DNA of 45,998 nucleotides from Promethearchaeota archaeon (GTDB lineage: Archaea > Asgardarchaeota > Lokiarchaeia > Sigyniarchaeales > SOKP01). The DNA is taken from contig JAHPZI010000003.1 in assembly GCA_019058295.1 (NCBI GenBank), positions 1 through 45,998 on the forward strand. The letters are read 5' to 3'. Shown piece after piece: positions 9,465 to 43,546 of the stretch; position 1 is the stretch's first letter; every line of letters starts with the position of its first letter. Below the pieces are notes generated by a model. It made no database searches. It worked only from the letters and a program-made list of their open reading frames with translations, and was not told where the DNA came from. The position numbers and the translations under genes are program-made.

Positions 9465-12419
9465 TTAACTCTCAAAAAGTTGTTTTTTGATATAGTTTAT
9501 GATATCATCTATTTTCAAATCATTTCTAGAGATGAAACCTTGTCCAAAATCTTTCCTGCCTCCCCCTTTTCCGCCAAATTGAGATACACATTTGCTAACA
9601 AAATTACCCATATTAAACTCCAATTTCTCTGAGGGACTTTCTCCCACCATTCCCATAATTGATATTCCATTTTGGGTCTTATTTAAGAATATAAGTATTA
9701 AATCATTTTTATCTTTTAAAATCTTAACTCCAAAATTCTTTAGATCATTTTGCTCTAAGTTTTCAAAAGATTCAATTATCAGTTTAAATTTATTGAATTC
9801 ATAAGCATTTTTTATCAGATTGTTTATATTTTCATTGCTAAAGAGTCTCTGAATCTTTTTTATCTTAACTTTAGCTTCATCCCATTCTTGATATAGTTTT
9901 TCTATTTTTGAAGGAACTTGGTCTTTCTTAATATTGAGAAAGTATGAAATTTCAGTTAAAATATCTCCCTTGAAAACATCATTAGAAGTTAATTTTAGAT
10001 CACTTTCATTAAAGTTTCCAGTTGTTAGAGATTTATTTACATTTTTCCATTTTTCTAAAAGTTCTCTAACTCTTCCTACTATTTTATCTGAATCAATTTT
10101 CATCAGAGTTACTAGTTCATTTAAAATTTCTTTATCTTTCTTTTTAATTCGTTCTGTAGCTTTTCCAGCTGTAAATTTTAATCTTACGACGCCATCCTGA
10201 ATTTTTTGTGATTTTATTATTTTAATTTTACCTGTTTCTGCTGTGTTATTTAAATGGGTACCACCGCATGCTTCTACATCCACATCTGGAATCTCTACTA
10301 TCCGAATATTTTTACCAGGAACAGCTCCACCTTGGTATATTGCCATTCCATACTTTTTCTCAGCTTCCGTCCTCGGGATAAAATCTAAATAGAGATCAAT
10401 TCCTTGTTCAACTATTTCGTTTGCACGCCTTTCAATTTCTTTGAGTTTATCTCTAGAGATTTGTTCAAAGTGAGTGATATCTAGATGAGAGCTTTTAAGC
10501 GTTTTTTTAGCACCTGCCTGATTAACATGACTACCTAAAACATCTCGAGCAGCTGCATTAACAATATGAGTTGCTGTATGATGCTGAGAAAGTTGTCTAC
10601 GCCATTTTTCATCGACTTTTATTTTAACAATATCTCCTTCTTTAAATTTTGGTTTTTCATCTAAAATATGAATAATGTAGTTACCTTGTTTGAAAACATC
10701 GCTGAATCTTTGATTATTAATAGTACCAATATCGTGTAATTGACCTCCAGATGTTGGATATGCTACTGATTTATCTAAAACAACCATATTATCAAAAATT
10801 TTCAATACTTTAGCTTTATTAGTAGTTTCAGTGTAATCATAGTAATAGAGAGATTTTGTCTCAGGAAGTCCATTTAAATCTAATTCCAATTCTCTTTCTG
10901 TTGCATGAATTTGCTCAACCTTTTCATGTCTTTCGACAACTAAAGAATAGAAATCATCTGGAATTTTCACCTTCTTGTCATATTTTTTAGCTGCGTCTTT
11001 AACCATATCTGGGCTAATTCCATTAGAATCGTATAATTCTATTAAAGTATCAGTAGAGATATCCCCTTTTTTCAAGATCTTTTCTAAAATTTTTCCAGCT
11101 TTTTTCTTTGTGGCGTAAAATTTTTCCTTTTCGACATTAAGAATTTCTCTAATTTCGTCTAAATGTTCAGAAACTTCAGGAAAGAGGACTTTTAATTCTT
11201 CAGCGTGCCAAGAGCATACATCCGCCATATCTATATTCCAATCAAATTTGTCAATAAAGCTTATGGCACGCCTAAAAATCACTCTTAAATTATAACCACC
11301 ACCTACATTTGAGGGAAGTTTACCATCATTAATTGCAAACAATAAAGTTCGAGCGTGCTCAGCAATTGAATATAATCCGGTCATTGGTAATATTTTTTCT
11401 TTTAACACCTTAACATCTATCTGTAATTCCTTACCAACGCGATTCCAAGCAGCGTCCATATCATCAACTTCGTCAATATTTAGATATGCAGAATATTGAG
11501 AGAATCTATTATATAGCTCTAAATCTAATTCGATTTTTGTAATTTCTCTTAATTTTGATAGGACATGAGGAAAAATTGCTTCATACATATTAGGAGTACC
11601 CTGTGAAAACCATGCAACTCGTTCTTGTCCAAGGCCCATATCTAAAACTTTAAGCTGTAATTCACGTGGGCCTTCAGGGGATTGTTCAAACATAGTATAA
11701 ACTTGATTAAAAAGTTCAACACCTCTACTAAAGAATTCAAGACTACATCCAAAAGAGCCTCCACCTGCCCAACTATCTTCATGAATAGTAATTTCTTCCT
11801 TCGCAAGACCAACCCCTTTATGGATAAAATCATGCATGTCCATAAAAAGCTGCCCTTGATCCCATTCTTGGGGTGAAACAAATGTATGCTGTCCAATCAT
11901 TACAAAACCAGTGTTATGACTTCCAGTAACCCCTACATTCTCGATGTCATTAAATCTCAAACAGAACTGAGGGATTAATAATTTTTTTGCTGGGGGTTCC
12001 ACCTCACCTGTTATAACATATGGCTGAAATGCTGAAATTGAAGCTATGGTAAACTCAGATGTGGGATTCCACCTTGCTACACATGGATACCTTTTTATTG
12101 GTTGATATCCTCTTGGCTCTAAAATTTCAACAATTTTGTTCCAAACATCGATAAATGATAGTTTTATTGCTGATGGATTATCTATGACAACTTGAAATCC
12201 TCCTGAACAAGCTGGGTCTCCACAAACTTCTCTATCATTATGAACAGTCCAAAAATAGGTTCCGCACTTACATAATTTTCTCATATATCCAAGTTTTTTG
12301 AGCTCTTCAGTAGGAAAATATTTCTCGGGTTCTTTTGATGCGATTTTTTTGAAGACGCTTTTCAGCTCTTTATCTGTTTTGCTGTTTTTAAGCTGTGTCT
12401 CAAGGTCATTAGAAGGCAT
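9465..12419 (-). CDS. alaS: Alanine--tRNA ligase, archaeal type
   Basis: N-terminal Cys-rich CKCGTYFWT..CGDPAC, class II motifs (CLRFNDIENVG, DMGLGQER), editing domain HTATH and EACGGTH, C-terminal GGKGGG; start ATG 12419 (ORF track TTG 12428). Confidence 0.95.
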   Translation of the reverse strand: MPSNDLETQLKNSKTDKELKSVFKKIASKEPEKYFPTEELKKLGYMRKLCKCGTYFWTVHNDREVCGDPACSGGFQVVIDNPSAIKLSFIDVWNKIVEILEPRGYQPIKRYPCVARWNPTSEFTIASISAFQPYVITGEVEPPAKKLLIPQFCLRFNDIENVGVTGSHNTGFVMIGQHTFVSPQEWDQGQLFMDMHDFIHKGVGLAKEEITIHEDSWAGGGSFGCSLEFFSRGVELFNQVYTMFEQSPEGPRELQLKVLDMGLGQERVAWFSQGTPNMYEAIFPHVLSKLREITKIELDLELYNRFSQYSAYLNIDEVDDMDAAWNRVGKELQIDVKVLKEKILPMTGLYSIAEHARTLLFAINDGKLPSNVGGGYNLRVIFRRAISFIDKFDWNIDMADVCSWHAEELKVLFPEVSEHLDEIREILNVEKEKFYATKKKAGKILEKILKKGDISTDTLIELYDSNGISPDMVKDAAKKYDKKVKIPDDFYSLVVERHEKVEQIHATERELELDLNGLPETKSLYYYDYTETTNKAKVLKIFDNMVVLDKSVAYPTSGGQLHDIGTINNQRFSDVFKQGNYIIHILDEKPKFKEGDIVKIKVDEKWRRQLSQHHTATHIVNAAARDVLGSHVNQAGAKKTLKSSHLDITHFEQISRDKLKEIERRANEIVEQGIDLYLDFIPRTEAEKKYGMAIYQGGAVPGKNIRIVEIPDVDVEACGGTHLNNTAETGKIKIIKSQKIQDGVVRLKFTAGKATERIKKKDKEILNELVTLMKIDSDKIVGRVRELLEKWKNVNKSLTTGNFNESDLKLTSNDVFKGDILTEISYFLNIKKDQVPSKIEKLYQEWDEAKVKIKKIQRLFSNENINNLIKNAYEFNKFKLIIESFENLEQNDLKNFGVKILKDKNDLILIFLNKTQNGISIMGMVGESPSEKLEFNMGNFVSKCVSQFGGKGGGRKDFGQGFISRNDLKIDDIINYIKKQLFES

Positions 12420-12524
12420 TTTAATCAAGTTTCATTAAAGTATAATCTTGAAATATAGATGATTACTAAGAAATAAAATAAAACATTTCCTAAAACTATT
12501 ATTATTATTCCTAATATAACAAAT

Positions 12525-15500
12525 TTAGGAATAACAGGTCCTATTGATAATAACCTTTTTCATCTCATCAGAAAGCTCATTAAAGTAGGCGCAGTAACCG
12601 GCAATACGAACCATAAGGTTGGGGTGTTTTTCTGGGTTTTTATAGGCTTCCAGTAATATTTCACGGTTAATGACATTGGGTTGAAGTTCCATTCCCCCTT
12701 TTGTAAGAAATGTCTTTATTATACTTGCCAGATTTTTTACACCCTCTTTGCCCTGAAACAATGCGGAATCAATAGTAAACGTAACCGTTGTACCATTTTC
12801 AGCATGATCTATAAAATTAACCCCAGCGATAGAATTCAGTGACGAAAATAGATCCGATTGTTCCATTCCATAATGCGGAATAATACTGTTGGCAAGAGGA
12901 ACGCCTTTTAATCTTCCCGAAGGCAGGGCTGGGGTATTTTTACCATATCTAGTACAGACATTCAAGGCATAATAGCCAGCTGAATATCTGCCGTTTCGCG
13001 GACAATTCTTCACAGAGTCCAGAGCATTATTATAAATCTCCATTACTTTGGTTACCCATTCTGTAGCTTCACGAGATGAATCATCACCGAATTTTGGTAT
13101 CGCGAGCAATGCAGACCGGATATTCTGGTTATAGTCCCCTTGGAAATTTTTTTCGATGGCATAAATGATGTCACTGATACTATAAAGTTTTTTCTTGAAT
13201 ACAACCTCATTGATGGCATACAACGAATCTGCGACATCCGTAACCCCTAACGCTTGAATACCACTGCTGTTAAAGGTTGTACCGCCTTCGTTTACATCTT
13301 TTCCACTTTCAATACATCCATTAAAGAGTGAGGAGGCAAGAGGTGTTGTAAAATTTTTACAAAGCTCTTTTTCAATTTTCTGGTGATCGGTCAATATTGA
13401 ATTTGCCAGATGGTTCAATCGTGTCTGGAAGCGTTCAAGTAATTCATCCATACTGGATGGTGGGTTATAAATATAGAGACCTTTCTTACTATTACGCCTT
13501 TTAATTAGCTTGTTAAAAATAGTATTAATGTACCTGGAAATTATATTTTTCTTGTATGAATATAAGTATTTATTAAAATTTTTTATTAATTGCAATAATG
13601 CCTCACGGAATCCATAATTCCATAGATCATGTCTATGACCTCTAATTGCCTGCAATAAAGGAAGAGCAAGATTCATATTGGCACAATCTGTATTGCCAAA
13701 ATGGTCATCTGAAGCATTAGGTTCAACACATCCTATTATTGAATAATTTCTCGCATTTTCCAGAGTAGTAGAATAATGTCTTTGTATGGTTTCTATGTAA
13801 ATCTCATCGCTGAATAATTGTGGTATAGGACATCCGTTGATATATCCCTCTGCAATTCTTTCCAGATATTGAGCAGGACTGTTTTTATGAACTCGTGCTG
13901 CCATATCTACACATCGCGGCAGCAGTTCACAGGCATCAATCAGCATATAGGTAATGTCATTGGTGGCATCCCTGCCGTCCTTGTCAACACCGCCAAAAGT
14001 CAAAGCCTGATCTGTAGAGAGAGTCTCAAAATTCTTAGAGATACTTAAAAATGATTCGCCATCATTTATAAAAAATACTTCATCCATTTTGAGAATAAAT
14101 AAACAAAGAAGTTCTTTTGCTTTCTCGTAAGTAATTAACCCTGCTTCTTTGTCCTTTTTATAATAAGGATACAAGATCTGATCAAGACGTCCATAGGAGA
14201 CCGCATTTTCAAAAGATTCAAGGCAAAGCGCGATTTGTATAAACAACATGGATTGCAGAGCTTCATGAAATGTGCGGGCGGGATACATAGGAACATGCCT
14301 ACAGATCCTTTCCATTTCTTCCAATTCCATGCGACGCTCCGGATCTTTTTCTTTCTTGCTCAAACTCGACAATTTTTCAGCATATTTCAGAGCAAAAGAT
14401 TCCAATCCTTTTAGAGCAATTATGATACTATTATAAAAATCCTGATTATTCTCAGGCTTTTCTTTTTGCTTTGCCTTAATCTCTTCTATGAGACCAGAGG
14501 TTCCTAGATTAAGAATGCGTTTAAAATTTACAATATAATGCGCTATTGATACTAAATTATTATTAAATCCAGAATCCATCTCTGAAGTTCGTCCCAGATA
14601 GAAGATAAACTCAGATAATTTTGGATATACCTTCTTTAAAAGGCTATGTTTCGACCAGAAAGGATATATCCGAAAATAAAAGTAGAGCCTATCTTTACGA
14701 GAAATGTGGAATGAAACCGGTTTTTGGCGATTTATTTTATAGAGAAACATTATAGCCGAAGTGCCAGCGTATTCTTCCCAAAGCTGGCCAGCGGTTCTTT
14801 TGGATGTAAAATTACCAACGAGTAGCTCCCGGGGATAGATTATGACTTTCTTATTTCGTAATACATACGAAAGACGTTCTGCCCTATGAATGGGGGTCGG
14901 CTTTTTAAAACCGTGCTTCTTATAATACTTTGTTTTAAGTTTAGCTGCTTCTATACAAAGAGCCAGCCTACTCTCTCTTATATCTTTCTGTATTTCTTTA
15001 ACACGCTGCGTAAAGACGGTTTGATGTCCGGAAGAATCTAGATCCGTGTTTTCGGCCTTAATGCCATAAGATTTGAATAATTTTACTCCATTTTTTAGTG
15101 ATACAAGGCTTTGTTCTGGGGTGATATTTAATGAAGCCACATCCAGACCAAGACGTTGAGCTTTTTCTTCATACAAGTTGTGGTATTTCATTAATTCAAT
15201 TGAGTTATACTTGATTGATTTTAAAAAATCAGAAGTGTTTTGTATATTGCTTTTACTATCGGTGAATCCCGGCACCATTACCATTCGAAATTTAATTTTG
15301 GCGTTTAAATCAATTAATTTCTTTATATTGCTATGGATCAAGGTGCTGTCTTGTTTTGTGTATTTTATATGGAGCTTGTCGTCACCAACAACCTTAAGAT
15401 CAACGAGAAAAAGATCTATGTAAGGTGCGATTTTACTGATATTTTTCCAAGGCGCATGAAGCGATGTTTCAGCGGTTATCTTTATATTTTCTTTTTTTAA

Positions 15501-15803
15501 TAATTTCAATAAATCTATTAGACTATTCGGGTCTTGTAAGAGAGGCTCACCGCCGCTCAGCGTCACTCCACCGTTGGTTGAGCGGTAATAATCAATATCT
15601 CTCGAAACCACTTCCATTATGTCGTCTATTGAATAATTACAATCAGACGCCATGACGCCCTGAAATGATTGCATTTCTGGATTTTGACACCATAAACATC
15701 TCAAATTGCACCCCTTGAAAAACAATGTGGTATTAATCCCGGGGCCGTCATAAACACAGGTACGTTGTATTTGAAAGGTTTTTAGGCTTTCAGTTGTTTG
15801 CAT
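12525..15803 (-). CDS. Fusion of glycyl-radical enzyme activating enzyme (radical SAM) and PFL-family glycyl radical enzyme
   Basis: N-terminus DGPG..T.FFKGCNLRCLWCQNPE and GGVTLSGGEPL; C-terminal part with VSYGRLDQILYPYY, Cys loop GCVEP and Gly loop VRIAGY; one uninterrupted ORF. Confidence 0.9.
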   Translation of the reverse strand: MQTTESLKTFQIQRTCVYDGPGINTTLFFKGCNLRCLWCQNPEMQSFQGVMASDCNYSIDDIMEVVSRDIDYYRSTNGGVTLSGGEPLLQDPNSLIDLLKLLKKENIKITAETSLHAPWKNISKIAPYIDLFLVDLKVVGDDKLHIKYTKQDSTLIHSNIKKLIDLNAKIKFRMVMVPGFTDSKSNIQNTSDFLKSIKYNSIELMKYHNLYEEKAQRLGLDVASLNITPEQSLVSLKNGVKLFKSYGIKAENTDLDSSGHQTVFTQRVKEIQKDIRESRLALCIEAAKLKTKYYKKHGFKKPTPIHRAERLSYVLRNKKVIIYPRELLVGNFTSKRTAGQLWEEYAGTSAIMFLYKINRQKPVSFHISRKDRLYFYFRIYPFWSKHSLLKKVYPKLSEFIFYLGRTSEMDSGFNNNLVSIAHYIVNFKRILNLGTSGLIEEIKAKQKEKPENNQDFYNSIIIALKGLESFALKYAEKLSSLSKKEKDPERRMELEEMERICRHVPMYPARTFHEALQSMLFIQIALCLESFENAVSYGRLDQILYPYYKKDKEAGLITYEKAKELLCLFILKMDEVFFINDGESFLSISKNFETLSTDQALTFGGVDKDGRDATNDITYMLIDACELLPRCVDMAARVHKNSPAQYLERIAEGYINGCPIPQLFSDEIYIETIQRHYSTTLENARNYSIIGCVEPNASDDHFGNTDCANMNLALPLLQAIRGHRHDLWNYGFREALLQLIKNFNKYLYSYKKNIISRYINTIFNKLIKRRNSKKGLYIYNPPSSMDELLERFQTRLNHLANSILTDHQKIEKELCKNFTTPLASSLFNGCIESGKDVNEGGTTFNSSGIQALGVTDVADSLYAINEVVFKKKLYSISDIIYAIEKNFQGDYNQNIRSALLAIPKFGDDSSREATEWVTKVMEIYNNALDSVKNCPRNGRYSAGYYALNVCTRYGKNTPALPSGRLKGVPLANSIIPHYGMEQSDLFSSLNSIAGVNFIDHAENGTTVTFTIDSALFQGKEGVKNLASIIKTFLTKGGMELQPNVINREILLEAYKNPEKHPNLMVRIAGYCAYFNELSDEMKKVIINRTCYS

Positions 15804-41041: not shown

Positions 41042-43546
41042 ATGAGTAAAATCAATGGCAAATTAGACAGCCACAGAGAGGAACCAAAATTTCCGATTGC
41101 GGAACCTCATGATCTCTCACCTCGTTCAAAATGGCTAAGAGAATATTATTTTAAGGGAGCAGAAAGAGAATGGAATAACGAATTTATGGTATTTACGACA
41201 GGGACTGATTGGGATATAATTTGGTATGAAGGAGATTATTATAACGCACCTGAAATTCTTTATTATATTCAAATTTTGGGAAAAAAAGACAAAGGAGTTT
41301 TTGCTTCTTCCTTTAGATCGATGGGTATACCAGTTAAATTGCCCGATGATTTTTGGGAATTATCCTTGCCAGAACGTAGAATGACATTTCTTGAGGATGT
41401 TATTCTCAATTATATTCCCCAAGAAATTATTTCAGAAAACGATTTAGTTGCTGGGGGAAGGTTTAACACTCAATTAAGTAAATGCTTTAATAAAAACGAA
41501 TCTAAAGAGTATTGGAAAAAAAATATAAGAAATAGAGATGATGTTTTCAAATATCATAGATCTGGATTTGGAAATCTTGGCGCTATCGCAGGACATATCA
41601 TTCCCGATTACGAAGCTGTTGTCAAGAAAGGATTTAAACATATATATGAGAGTGCAAAAGAAAGTTACTCCAAATTAAGTGAAGAGGAAAAAAACGGTCC
41701 AAAAGGACAAGAACTTAGAGCAATGATAAAAGCTGCTGAAATTCCAAGAAAATTAGCAAAAAAATACGTTGAGGAATGTAGAAGATTAAAAGATGAAGCA
41801 ACGACTCCTGAAAGAGTGGAAGAACTTGAACTAATGGCAGAAAATTTGGAGCGCGTTCCGTGGGAGCCTGCAGAAACCTTCTGGCAAGGAGTTCAAGCGA
41901 TTTGGCTTACACACATGTTAGTAATGACAGAAGAGTCTTATCCCGGACCTGGGCTTTCTTTTGGTAGAACAGATCAACATTTATGGTCTTTATACAAAAA
42001 AGATGTTATAGACGAGAAAAATATTACAAAAGAATTTGCAAAGGATATATTGGGAAGCTTCTGGTTTCATTGTAATACTGTGTACGATGCTATGATAAGA
42101 GTTGGCAAGCAAGGAATTACGTCAGCCTTTGGACAATTAATGACATTATCCGGATGCGGTCCGAATGGAGAGGATTTGACGAATGAATTAACCTATACGA
42201 TTTTAGAGGTTATTGATGAGTGGTCGCCTATTCTAGAACCAAAGCCAAACGTAAGATTACATAGAAATTCACCTGATAAATTATTAGATAAAATAATTGA
42301 GATGATCTCAAGGTCTCAAGGTGCTCCTTTTCTAATAAATTTTGATGAAAGGAGTATTGCCGGTATGGTTAAAGAGGGTATTTCTAAAGAAGAAGCTTGG
42401 GATTATGCTTGTGTTGGATGTTTAGAAAACACTATGCAAGGAAACGATCGTTCAGGAACGGTCAATTGTAATCCTAATCTGACAAAAAGTATAGAATTAA
42501 CCCTATGGAATGGAAAAAATATGCCAGGAAACAATTTAGCAACGAAACCCAGCGAACAAATTGGACCTGAAACAGGAGAACCTGAAAATTTTGAAACATG
42601 GGAAGATTTCTGGAACGCATGGAAACAACAAATTCAATTTGCTATAAAATACACTGTAGATATAAACAATTTATGTGAAGAACTACGTGGAGAGTTTCTC
42701 CCAACTCCGTACTTATCAACTATCGTTCGAGGGTGTATAGAGAAGGGTTTAGATGTACGGAATGGTGGACCAGAACTTAGATTCATAACTATTGAAGGAG
42801 TTGGTTTTGCAACCACCGTTGACTCTTTATTAGCAATTAAAAAGTTAGTTTATGATGATAAAAAATATACAATAACTCAAATTAAAGAAGCATTAATTAA
42901 CGATTTCAAAGATACTGAAGTTATGCAAACTTTCCTAAAGAATAAGGCTCCAAAATATGGAAACGATGATGACGCTGCAGACGAATTGGCTAGAAAGGTT
43001 ATGAAAGTCTGGGCGGATGAAACTTGGAAATATAAAACACTAACCGATTTTCAATATCGTCCCGGAATGTTATCTTGGAATTATTGGGCTGGAGCTGACG
43101 CTGGTTTTACAGCTACGACTCCAGATGGTCGAAAAAAAGGTACATTTCTTTCAAATGCGATTTGTCCTTCAAATGGGGCCGACAAATGGGGGCCCACGGC
43201 TGTCACTAATTCAGTAGGAATTGTTTTAGGTGGTAAGACAGAAACAGGAGAATACATAAATTATTTACCAAACGGTGCTTCGCATACGATAACGTTTAAT
43301 CCTAGCATTCTTGTTGATCCCGAGCATAAAGAAAAGTTTAAATCTTATCTAAGGGGCTATGTTGAGAATGGAGGAACATGTTTGCAAATAAATATGCTAG
43401 ATGCTGAAATGTTAAAAGACGCTCAAAAGCATCCAGAGAATTATAAAAACCTCTTAGTTAGAGTTACCGGATATAATGCTTACTTTACGGCAATTGGAAG
43501 GGAATTACAAGACGAGATAATTGCACGAGAATCTCATAAAATTTAG
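41042..43546 (+). CDS. Glycyl radical enzyme, PFL-like family, substrate unknown
   Basis: SFGRTDQ, Cys loop CVGCLEN, ATTPDGRK.G..LSNAICPS.G.D..GPTA, Gly loop LLVRVTGY. Confidence 0.9.
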   Translation: MSKINGKLDSHREEPKFPIAEPHDLSPRSKWLREYYFKGAEREWNNEFMVFTTGTDWDIIWYEGDYYNAPEILYYIQILGKKDKGVFASSFRSMGIPVKLPDDFWELSLPERRMTFLEDVILNYIPQEIISENDLVAGGRFNTQLSKCFNKNESKEYWKKNIRNRDDVFKYHRSGFGNLGAIAGHIIPDYEAVVKKGFKHIYESAKESYSKLSEEEKNGPKGQELRAMIKAAEIPRKLAKKYVEECRRLKDEATTPERVEELELMAENLERVPWEPAETFWQGVQAIWLTHMLVMTEESYPGPGLSFGRTDQHLWSLYKKDVIDEKNITKEFAKDILGSFWFHCNTVYDAMIRVGKQGITSAFGQLMTLSGCGPNGEDLTNELTYTILEVIDEWSPILEPKPNVRLHRNSPDKLLDKIIEMISRSQGAPFLINFDERSIAGMVKEGISKEEAWDYACVGCLENTMQGNDRSGTVNCNPNLTKSIELTLWNGKNMPGNNLATKPSEQIGPETGEPENFETWEDFWNAWKQQIQFAIKYTVDINNLCEELRGEFLPTPYLSTIVRGCIEKGLDVRNGGPELRFITIEGVGFATTVDSLLAIKKLVYDDKKYTITQIKEALINDFKDTEVMQTFLKNKAPKYGNDDDAADELARKVMKVWADETWKYKTLTDFQYRPGMLSWNYWAGADAGFTATTPDGRKKGTFLSNAICPSNGADKWGPTAVTNSVGIVLGGKTETGEYINYLPNGASHTITFNPSILVDPEHKEKFKSYLRGYVENGGTCLQINMLDAEMLKDAQKHPENYKNLLVRVTGYNAYFTAIGRELQDEIIARESHKI
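43487..43546 (+). repeat. Copy 1 of a diverged 60-nt direct repeat (3' end of the GRE gene)
   Basis: Encodes TAIGRELQDEIIARESHKI*; 51/60 identical to 45905..45964. Confidence 0.9.

Follow-up and report, generated by a model that had tools for sequence, protein, structure and literature searches.

The DNA analysed here, hereafter the window, is a stretch of 45,998 bases from a Promethearchaeota archaeon (contig JAHPZI010000003.1 of assembly GCA_019058295.1). It makes up the entire contig C3 of a 3.2 Mb genome that is 79% complete, and it raises the question of whether a glycyl radical enzyme (GRE) and the activase that installs its radical can work as a single polypeptide. One gene of the window, located at 12525-15803 on the minus strand, codes for a radical S-adenosylmethionine (SAM) activase joined to a complete GRE. 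The fusion is genuine and conserved in a wide range of bacteria and archaea. We consider it likely that the product is a single-chain glycyl radical system in which the N-terminal half would activate the C-terminal half. The best-supported chemistry, as judged from conserved residues, would be a radical 1,2-elimination, most likely a dehydration, of a substrate unlike the known ones.

A single gene for activase and glycyl radical enzyme

Translation of the window yields a single stop-free open reading frame (ORF) of 1092 codons, and upstream of its ATG the open frame runs just 2 more codons. An earlier note on this DNA had described one ORF of 1092 amino acids (aa) holding an activase and a full GRE with GCVEP and RIAGY motifs, a description confirmed by translation, Pfam and NCBIfam. 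On the fused protein, Pfam places Radical_SAM and Fer4_12 at aa 19-183, a PFL-like domain (PF02901, E 2.5e-134) from aa 265 and Gly_radical (PF01228, 78 bits) at aa 972-1075. The features of the gene, all on the minus strand (-), are as follows.

12525-15803 (-): whole ORF (P0001), 1092 aa plus stop, activase fused to GRE (translation, Pfam, NCBIfam).
15054-15803 (-): activase (radical SAM) domain, aa 1-250, short and insert-less (Pfam, TIGR02494; alignment to the pyruvate formate-lyase activating enzyme, PFL-AE, 3c8f, E 3e-22).
15738-15749 (-): DGPG, aa 19-22, belonging to the motif by which activases bind the Gly loop (aligns to DGPGIR of PFL-AE).
15687-15710 (-): CxxxCxxC (CNLRCLWC; C32, C36, C39), ligands of the radical SAM [4Fe-4S] cluster (translated coordinates; invariant in the family).
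15543-15554 (-): GGEP, aa 84-87, SAM-binding motif (translated coordinates; G84, G85 and P87 invariant).
15015-15053 (-): linker, aa 251-263, ENTDLDSSGHQTV, gap-free and of fixed length in the 21-sequence alignment A1.
12528-15014 (-): GRE body, aa 264-1092, made up of the PFL-like barrel and the Gly radical domain (Pfam; Foldseek TMt 0.88-0.92).
14604-14708 (-): segment rich in aromatic and basic residues, aa 366-400, with a mean net charge of about +4 in the family.
13719-13733 (-): Cys loop GCVEP with putative catalytic C692 and general base E694 (invariant; aligns to C433/E435 of glycerol dehydratase).
13449-13628 (-): basic insertion peculiar to the family, aa 726-785 (length about 59 aa; mean net charge about +7; helices 732-748 and 754-773 predicted).
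12579-12890 (-): glycyl radical domain, aa 972-1075 (Pfam; the activase is predicted to dock on helices 985-993 and 1018-1035).
12594-12608 (-): Gly loop RIAGY with G1069 as predicted radical site (R1066, A1068, G1069 and Y1070 invariant).

The N-terminal domain carries the CxxxCxxC motif, the GGE SAM motif and the N-terminal DGxG Gly-loop motif of the activase family, and scores 200.4 bits with the NCBIfam GRE activase model TIGR02494, whose cut-off is 174.35. This match comes in two stretches which skip model positions 41-102, that is, the ferredoxin-like insert with auxiliary [4Fe-4S] clusters typical of long-type activases. A stand-alone activase of the same genome, 33% identical to the fused domain, has a Cys-rich insert of 57 aa precisely at the skipped point. 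The fused activase therefore belongs to the short, insert-less kind, in line with the earlier remark that it has no ferredoxin insert. The C-terminal part shows the ten-stranded PFL-like barrel fold, the C-terminal RVxG[FWY]-type motif (RIAGY, aa 1066-1070) and the Cys loop (C692) of the GRE superfamily. Residues C32, C36, C39, G84, G85, P87, D19, G20, G22, C692, E694, G1069, H422, D706 and Y945 are invariant in 116 family members. Activases are usually defined as separate polypeptides; this one is fused in every full-length family member examined. No in-frame ATG, GTG or TTG occurs between codons 223 and 345 of the fused ORF, so that the GRE half is not separately startable at a canonical start codon. 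The earlier note, having seen no Met near a junction set at about 15020, thus holds for all three start codons, and the junction is placed at about 15015-15053, in accord with that estimate.

A search for proteins with the same architecture, as the earlier note had proposed, was run against 5.8 billion clustered proteins (933 matches among 8000 candidates scored) and against one genome per prokaryotic species, with verification of the best 80 loci. The best 120 of the 933 protein matches have lengths of 1047-1146 aa and identities of 65-93%. Almost all of them contain the four Pfam domains, and the few shorter sequences among them lack only the first residues. At the best 80 species loci the query is matched almost end to end where the contig permits, with 50-75% identity. 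Copies that depart from the full architecture in either set are cut by contig ends or start calls, and the same architecture and length are found in 11 other Asgard genomes. The species scan also counted 592 relatives, a number which partly rests on a pattern common to other GREs and is not used as family size. Together these observations exclude an assembly error at the junction.

In a library clustered at 50% identity, the family consists of one full-length representative (P0122), P0123 (881 aa) and fragments. P0123, the sole apparently unfused representative, starts at base 9 of its contig and is therefore truncated, not split; the possibility that homologs are always split is false. Separate genes run GRE then activase, both on contig C21 of this genome and in one plasmid example that was inspected. 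The fusion has the reverse order, activase then GRE, and so is not explained by the mere loss of a stop codon in an operon of the usual kind. No family member was found by tblastn among 72,556 plasmids, which held only ordinary two-gene GRE/activase pairs with about 30% identity.

The 80 loci, all from metagenome-assembled genomes, are distributed over more than 10 bacterial phyla, Hadarchaeota and Asgard archaea. Hosts include Thermodesulfobacteriota (among them Smithella and Syntrophaceae), Bacillota (among them Christensenellales and Oscillospiraceae), Spirochaetota (among them Leptospira-like genomes), Myxococcota, Bdellovibrionota, Hydrogenedentota, Chloroflexota, Nitrospirota, Bacteroidota and one Rickettsiales-labelled genome.

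Predicted docking, active site and proposed working

The whole chain was modelled by AF2 with 116 family sequences (pLDDT 89, pTM 0.90), and this pTM suggests that the relative placement of the two domains is confidently predicted. Local confidence dips at the linker (block 251-260 has a mean pLDDT of 71, between blocks of 95 and 93), and block means are 66-78 where the insertion helices 732-748 and 754-773 lie. The body matches propanediol dehydratase, glycerol dehydratase and Archaeoglobus fulgidus PFL2 in Foldseek, with TMt 0.88-0.92 and 26-28% identity.

In a complex prediction, the activase (aa 12-248) and the GRE (aa 330-1092, with aa 264-329 omitted) were given as separate chains. The pair obtained an ipSAE of 0.63 and the best of three controls 0.00. 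Of 80 solved complexes 58 score at least as high, as do 2 of 110 mismatched pairs, although this yardstick is approximate for a run made with our own alignment. Three runs agreed in 100% of the contacts, with a partner pLDDT of at least 79. The predicted interface joins activase residues 13-15, 17, 22-23 and 64-76 to GRE residues 908-909, 984-990 and 1015-1035, the latter mostly in the helices of the Gly_radical domain that carries G1069. Residues Q13, R14, G22, R68, D69, Y72, D908, N990, F1016, G1021 and T1031 at this interface are invariant or nearly so, and both G22, which is invariant with D19 and G20 in the DGPG motif, and I23 lie within it. Activase residues 13-15, 17 and 22-23 correspond to the strand and the DGPG loop with which PFL-AE (3CB8) holds its Gly-loop peptide.

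To our knowledge, no activase has been solved in complex with an entire GRE, and the activase chains matched in a PDB sequence search (3c8f/3cb8, 8fo0/8fol/8fsi and 3can) are named as activating enzyme alone, so that memory of a similar structure by the predictor is unlikely. The activase is thus predicted, in this model, to dock on the glycyl radical domain of its own enzyme. The prediction and its controls lend support to the suggestion in the earlier note of a possibly self-activating GRE, although self-activation as such is something we still infer.

The N-terminal radical SAM domain would hold a [4Fe-4S] cluster through C32, C36 and C39 and bind SAM. Reduction of the cluster by flavodoxin or ferredoxin would lead to cleavage of SAM and to a 5'-deoxyadenosyl radical, which would take a hydrogen atom from G1069 on the same chain or on the partner chain of a dimer. 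As the activase would rest on the C-terminal domain through its Gly-loop-binding face, a local flip of the loop might be enough to reach the SAM site, and the 1:1 tether would permit re-arming after quenching of the radical.

The GRE part was aligned to glycerol dehydratase (1R8W) in order to map the active site. Cys433, Glu435, His164, Asp447 and Tyr640 of the dehydratase correspond to C692, E694, H422, D706 and Y945 of the fused protein, and His281, Ser282 and Tyr339 to N533, A534 and D598; all eight positions are invariant in the 116 family members. The protein therefore has the Cys-x-Glu motif (C692-V-E694) and the His164 and Asp447 equivalents of GRE 1,2-eliminases. The substrate-contact positions Ser282 and Tyr339 of glycerol and propanediol dehydratases are not kept (A534, D598). 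Scores of NCBIfam models agree with a place outside the named groups: TIGR01774 gives 486 bits against a cut-off of 678, and no equivalog comes near its cut-off, the best being sulfopropanediol dehydratase with 368 against 1000 bits. A radical 1,2-eliminase, most likely a dehydratase with a substrate unlike known ones, is the best-supported assignment from the sequence. The eliminase-type character that the earlier note had read from the Cys-x-Glu loop is borne out by the single Cys followed by Glu and by the invariant equivalents of His164, Asp447 and Tyr640.

In such a reaction, the stored radical would pass to C692, and the resulting thiyl radical would abstract a hydrogen atom from the substrate. 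E694, H422 and D706 would then promote the 1,2-elimination of a leaving group, most likely a hydroxyl, as in B12-independent dehydratases. The substrate would not be among the known ones, given the invariant Ala534 in place of Ser282 and Asp598 in place of Tyr339.

Alternative explanations

Several points weigh against a self-activating eliminase. The ipSAE value expresses the confidence of a model and is not a measurement, and because separate chains were used, activation in cis and in trans are not separable. This copy reads DGPGIN at the Gly-loop-binding motif, where the family consensus is DGPGIR. The roles given to the active-site residues are carried over from the 1R8W literature by alignment, although residues of the types to be expected do stand at the numbered positions. 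Finally, the genome has 8 GREs against two stand-alone activases plus the fused one, and the fused domain might also serve other GREs.

All 8 of these PFL-like GREs have a single-Cys Cys-x-Glu loop (C7:73647, C2:83940, C2:88913, C28:118098, C26:17110, C21:87482, C3:43154 and C3:12579). The stand-alone activases are located at C30:197723-198607 and C21:86506-87366, and at least six of the eight GREs have no adjacent activase, including the one at 41042-43546 of the window. Such numbers are what would be expected if the fused domain were a general activase acting in trans, mainly on other GREs or on the partner chain of another dimer, with the fusion securing co-expression. We nevertheless regard this as improbable. 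The fused architecture and a high identity (about 60-90%) are kept in very different genomes, whatever other GREs are present; the predicted interface is specific to the protein's own Gly radical domain, with controls at 0.00; and a 1:1 tether would be wasteful for a catalytic, diffusible activase.

It is very unlikely, in our judgement, that the fused enzyme belongs to the X-succinate synthase type and adds hydrocarbons to fumarate. This function has been proposed for related archaeal PFL2/PflD and for Asgard GREs, and an alkylsuccinate synthase activity was suggested for A. fulgidus PFL2 (PMC8163825, PMC13450708), the closest solved sequence to ours. The family is moreover common in Smithella-type syntrophs. 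However, structures of benzylsuccinate and methylalkylsuccinate synthases score 116-132 bits against about 330 for dehydratases, the Glu, His and Asp of eliminases are invariant, and neither an accessory beta/gamma subunit nor small neighbour or beta-oxidation genes are conserved nearby in the 80-locus survey.

Even less credit can be given to the idea that the activase domain is a degenerate structural appendage devoid of radical SAM activity. The activases known to us from characterised eliminase GREs carry the auxiliary-cluster insert, and this insert is missing here. The key residues of CxxxCxxC, GGEP and DGPG are nonetheless invariant in 116 sequences, and PFL-AE (3c8f) is likewise without insert, yet active.

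The names 'formate C-acetyltransferase' and 'pyruvate formate lyase family protein' given by JGI/NCBI would make the protein a pyruvate formate-lyase (PFL, or formate C-acetyltransferase), which is hardly credible. PFL needs two adjacent catalytic Cys (C418/C419), and the single Cys of GCVEP excludes a true PFL; in addition, TIGR01255 gives 119 bits against a cut-off of 994, and PFL structures match by sequence only the C-terminal 140 residues. As for neighbouring activase and GRE genes that became one frame through an error in sequencing or assembly, or through the recent loss of a stop codon, the chance is negligible in view of the uninterrupted frame in the best 120 clusters and best 80 species genomes from independent studies, the fixed linker length in alignment A1, the lack of a start codon near the junction and an activase-GRE order which is the reverse of the operon.

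Gene context, origin and known relatives

Downstream of the fused gene, 96 bases away and on the same strand, lies alaS (alanyl-tRNA synthetase; window 9465-12428, minus strand, with TTG as start of the listed ORF); on the upstream side the gene diverges from a gene for a Ras-like GTPase. The neighbourhood survey grouped 1002 ORFs around the 80 loci into clusters and compared 114 immediate neighbours with Pfam. It revealed no conserved neighbour, with no neighbour family present at more than 12 of the 80 loci, and three further Asgard contexts had nothing in common with each other. The enzyme is encoded as a solitary unit, and its gene context does not reveal the substrate.

The most frequent neighbour, at 12 of the 80 loci and in Syntrophales-type genomes only, is a GntR/FadR-type regulator (GntR, FCD and FadR_C domains) directly upstream on the same strand (L030, L032, L033, L038, L042, L043, L046, L052, L062, L069, L072 and L098). 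It may offer a route to the inducer or the substrate. Other neighbours are lineage-specific: Fe-ADH (4), MFS_2 (8 loci, 2 of them adjacent), TetR (3-4), START/SRPBCC (about 5) and sulfatase (3). In a spirochaete (L023/L024, 1741-7818), the fused gene is preceded by a lineage-specific string of four same-strand genes with lipid-type domains, coding for an FAD-linked oxidase, an ABHD18-like hydrolase, a fusion of acyl-activating enzyme and acyltransferase, and a DUF1295/steroid-reductase-like membrane protein.

Two uses of the gene context were considered and rejected. An operon-based assignment of the substrate fails on the lineage-specific contexts and on the lack of any neighbour family common to more than 12 of the 80 loci. 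A link to RNA metabolism was hinted at by alaS in the window, by RNase R in one Christensenellales genome and by a DEAD helicase in one spirochaete; such neighbours do not recur in the 80 loci and are treated as coincidental.

Two of the other GREs of this genome have features of their own. The second, unfused GRE of the window (41042-43546, plus strand, 834 aa, Cys loop GCLEN) passes no NCBIfam cut-off; no GRE model covers its first 180 or so residues, and no activase gene adjoins it. At C21:85982-89293 (L008, L010) lies a GRE open frame of 992 aa, extended at its N-terminus by about 190 aa, with a long-type activase next in order. P0147 and P0161, which are similar to this C21 protein, also have weak YjjI-like Pfam matches within the GRE body.

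The nearest GREs outside the family are about 38% identical, and in a FastTree phylogeny of 95 rows the family forms one clade with a support of 100. Two other proteins in which an activase precedes a GRE in one chain, P0126 (1095 aa) and P0131 (1136 aa), have GRE bodies 37-38% identical to this family and activases that retain the ferredoxin-like insert (Fer4 matches at about aa 50-100). In the tree they group with unfused GREs outside the family, and the activase-GRE architecture is thus present in more than one lineage. No characterisation of fusions of this second type was found.

Within the family clade, Asgard sequences group with one Hadarchaeota and a few bacterial sequences in a clade of 25 rows (support 100) which is sister to a Bacillota clade. 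Distribution among Asgard archaea is patchy: with the activase domain as query and a family-level match of E <= 1e-50, the gene was found in 12 of 400 genomes and, counting the present one, in 2 of 10 genomes of the window's own genus. This patchy spread, the high identity across domains of life and the position beside a Bacillota clade suggest horizontal transfer to the Asgard lineage, with bacteria probably as the source. Here too there is a counterweight: the tree is a quick one computed with FastTree alone, its root is set on long outgroup branches, and the direction of transfer is something we infer. The G+C content of the fused gene is 36.8% and that of the whole window 30.7%, which fits a foreign origin and is weak evidence alone. 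A single gene that supplies both functions and needs no operon partner would be a portable unit, and the Asgard lineage probably acquired it in this form from bacteria.

A broader picture, to which we attach a rather low probability, would combine these elements. The gene would be a one-gene cassette whose activase sits permanently on its own glycyl radical domain and re-arms it in cis, and it would have spread among bacteria and Asgard archaea by virtue of being partner-free. It would perform a new elimination on a substrate class new to GREs, which might be a lipid's polar head or some other molecule associated with membranes. Weak hints as to the substrate are the invariant Asp598 in the pocket and the two aromatic or basic segments with mean net charges of +4 and +7. 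Some lineages add weak hints of lipids, namely the FadR-like regulator upstream at 12 of 80 loci and, in a few others, START/SRPBCC, TetR and an Aas-like acyltransferase. The hydrophobic moments of both basic segments are ordinary (about 0.54-0.57) and similar to those of the protein's own surface helices, so that this measure gives no support to membrane binding, and a membrane or lipid link is speculative.

The way in which an activase gains access to the glycine buried inside a GRE has long puzzled the field. As a naturally occurring 1:1 fusion, with a linker that is short and of fixed length and a docking surface predicted with confidence, the protein could provide a one-chain model for GRE activation. 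A recent review of GREs lists archaeal GREs and insoluble activases among the open problems of the field, and sees a major bottleneck in reconstituting the active enzyme with activases that are often insoluble (PMC13450708). The words 'fused' and 'fusion' are absent from this comprehensive 2026 review (PMC13450708). No description of an activase-GRE fusion was found in open-access full-text literature, a subscription-journal report remaining possible, and a PDB sequence search found no solved structure with this architecture; the family thus does not appear to have been characterised already, a point which the earlier note had set as a challenge to its own reading. The enzyme is widespread, highly conserved and solitary, and occurs in anaerobes of sediments and digesters, including relatives of the eukaryotic ancestor, where it is an apparent bacterial import.

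Among known systems, A. fulgidus PFL2/PflD (2F3O) is the best match in sequence to a solved structure (E 1e-99), with a TMt of 0.92 and 28% identity. Both have a single-Cys Cys-x-Glu loop, Ala at the position of Ser282, and His and Asp where glycerol dehydratase has His164 and Asp447, and PFL2 has a loop ENYEQA where the fused family has ESFENA. In contrast to the fused protein, PFL2 is a stand-alone GRE of 776 aa with a separately encoded activase, PflC. It is about 28% identical overall, lacks an insertion of about 40 aa at aa 726-785 and has Asn at the position of the invariant Asp598. The function of PFL2/PflD is described as unknown or debated (PMC13450708).

The glycerol dehydratase of Clostridium butyricum (1R8W) and the 1,2-propanediol dehydratases (Roseburia inulinivorans 5I2A/5I2G; 9RCO) match the body with TMt 0.88-0.90 and keep the equivalents of the catalytic Cys, Glu, His164, Asp447 and Tyr640, from which a shared logic of 1,2-elimination may be presumed. 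They differ from the fused protein by an identity of 26-28% and by the replacements Ser282 to Ala534, His281 to Asn533 and Tyr339 to Asp598. Each of them relies on a separate activase, which has a two-cluster insert of the ferredoxin-like kind and whose gene follows that of the GRE, whereas the activase of the fused protein is short, fused and N-terminal. The P0126 and P0131 proteins share with our family the order of activase then GRE in one chain, and differ in their insert-bearing activase and separate lineages.

On the side of the activase, Escherichia coli PflA (3C8F/3CB8) is the closest short counterpart without auxiliary clusters: residues 17-230 align to its residues 14-224 (E 3e-22), and DGPG, CxxxCxxC and GGE are shared. 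Unlike the fused domain, PflA is a free catalytic protein acting on PFL. The fused domain scores higher with the model for the long PflC/PflE type (TIGR02494, 200 bits) than with the one for PflA (TIGR02493, 143 bits), and looks, from its sequence, like a long-type activase that has lost its insert. The family would show that an eliminase-type GRE can work with an activase lacking auxiliary clusters, which bears on the purpose of those clusters.

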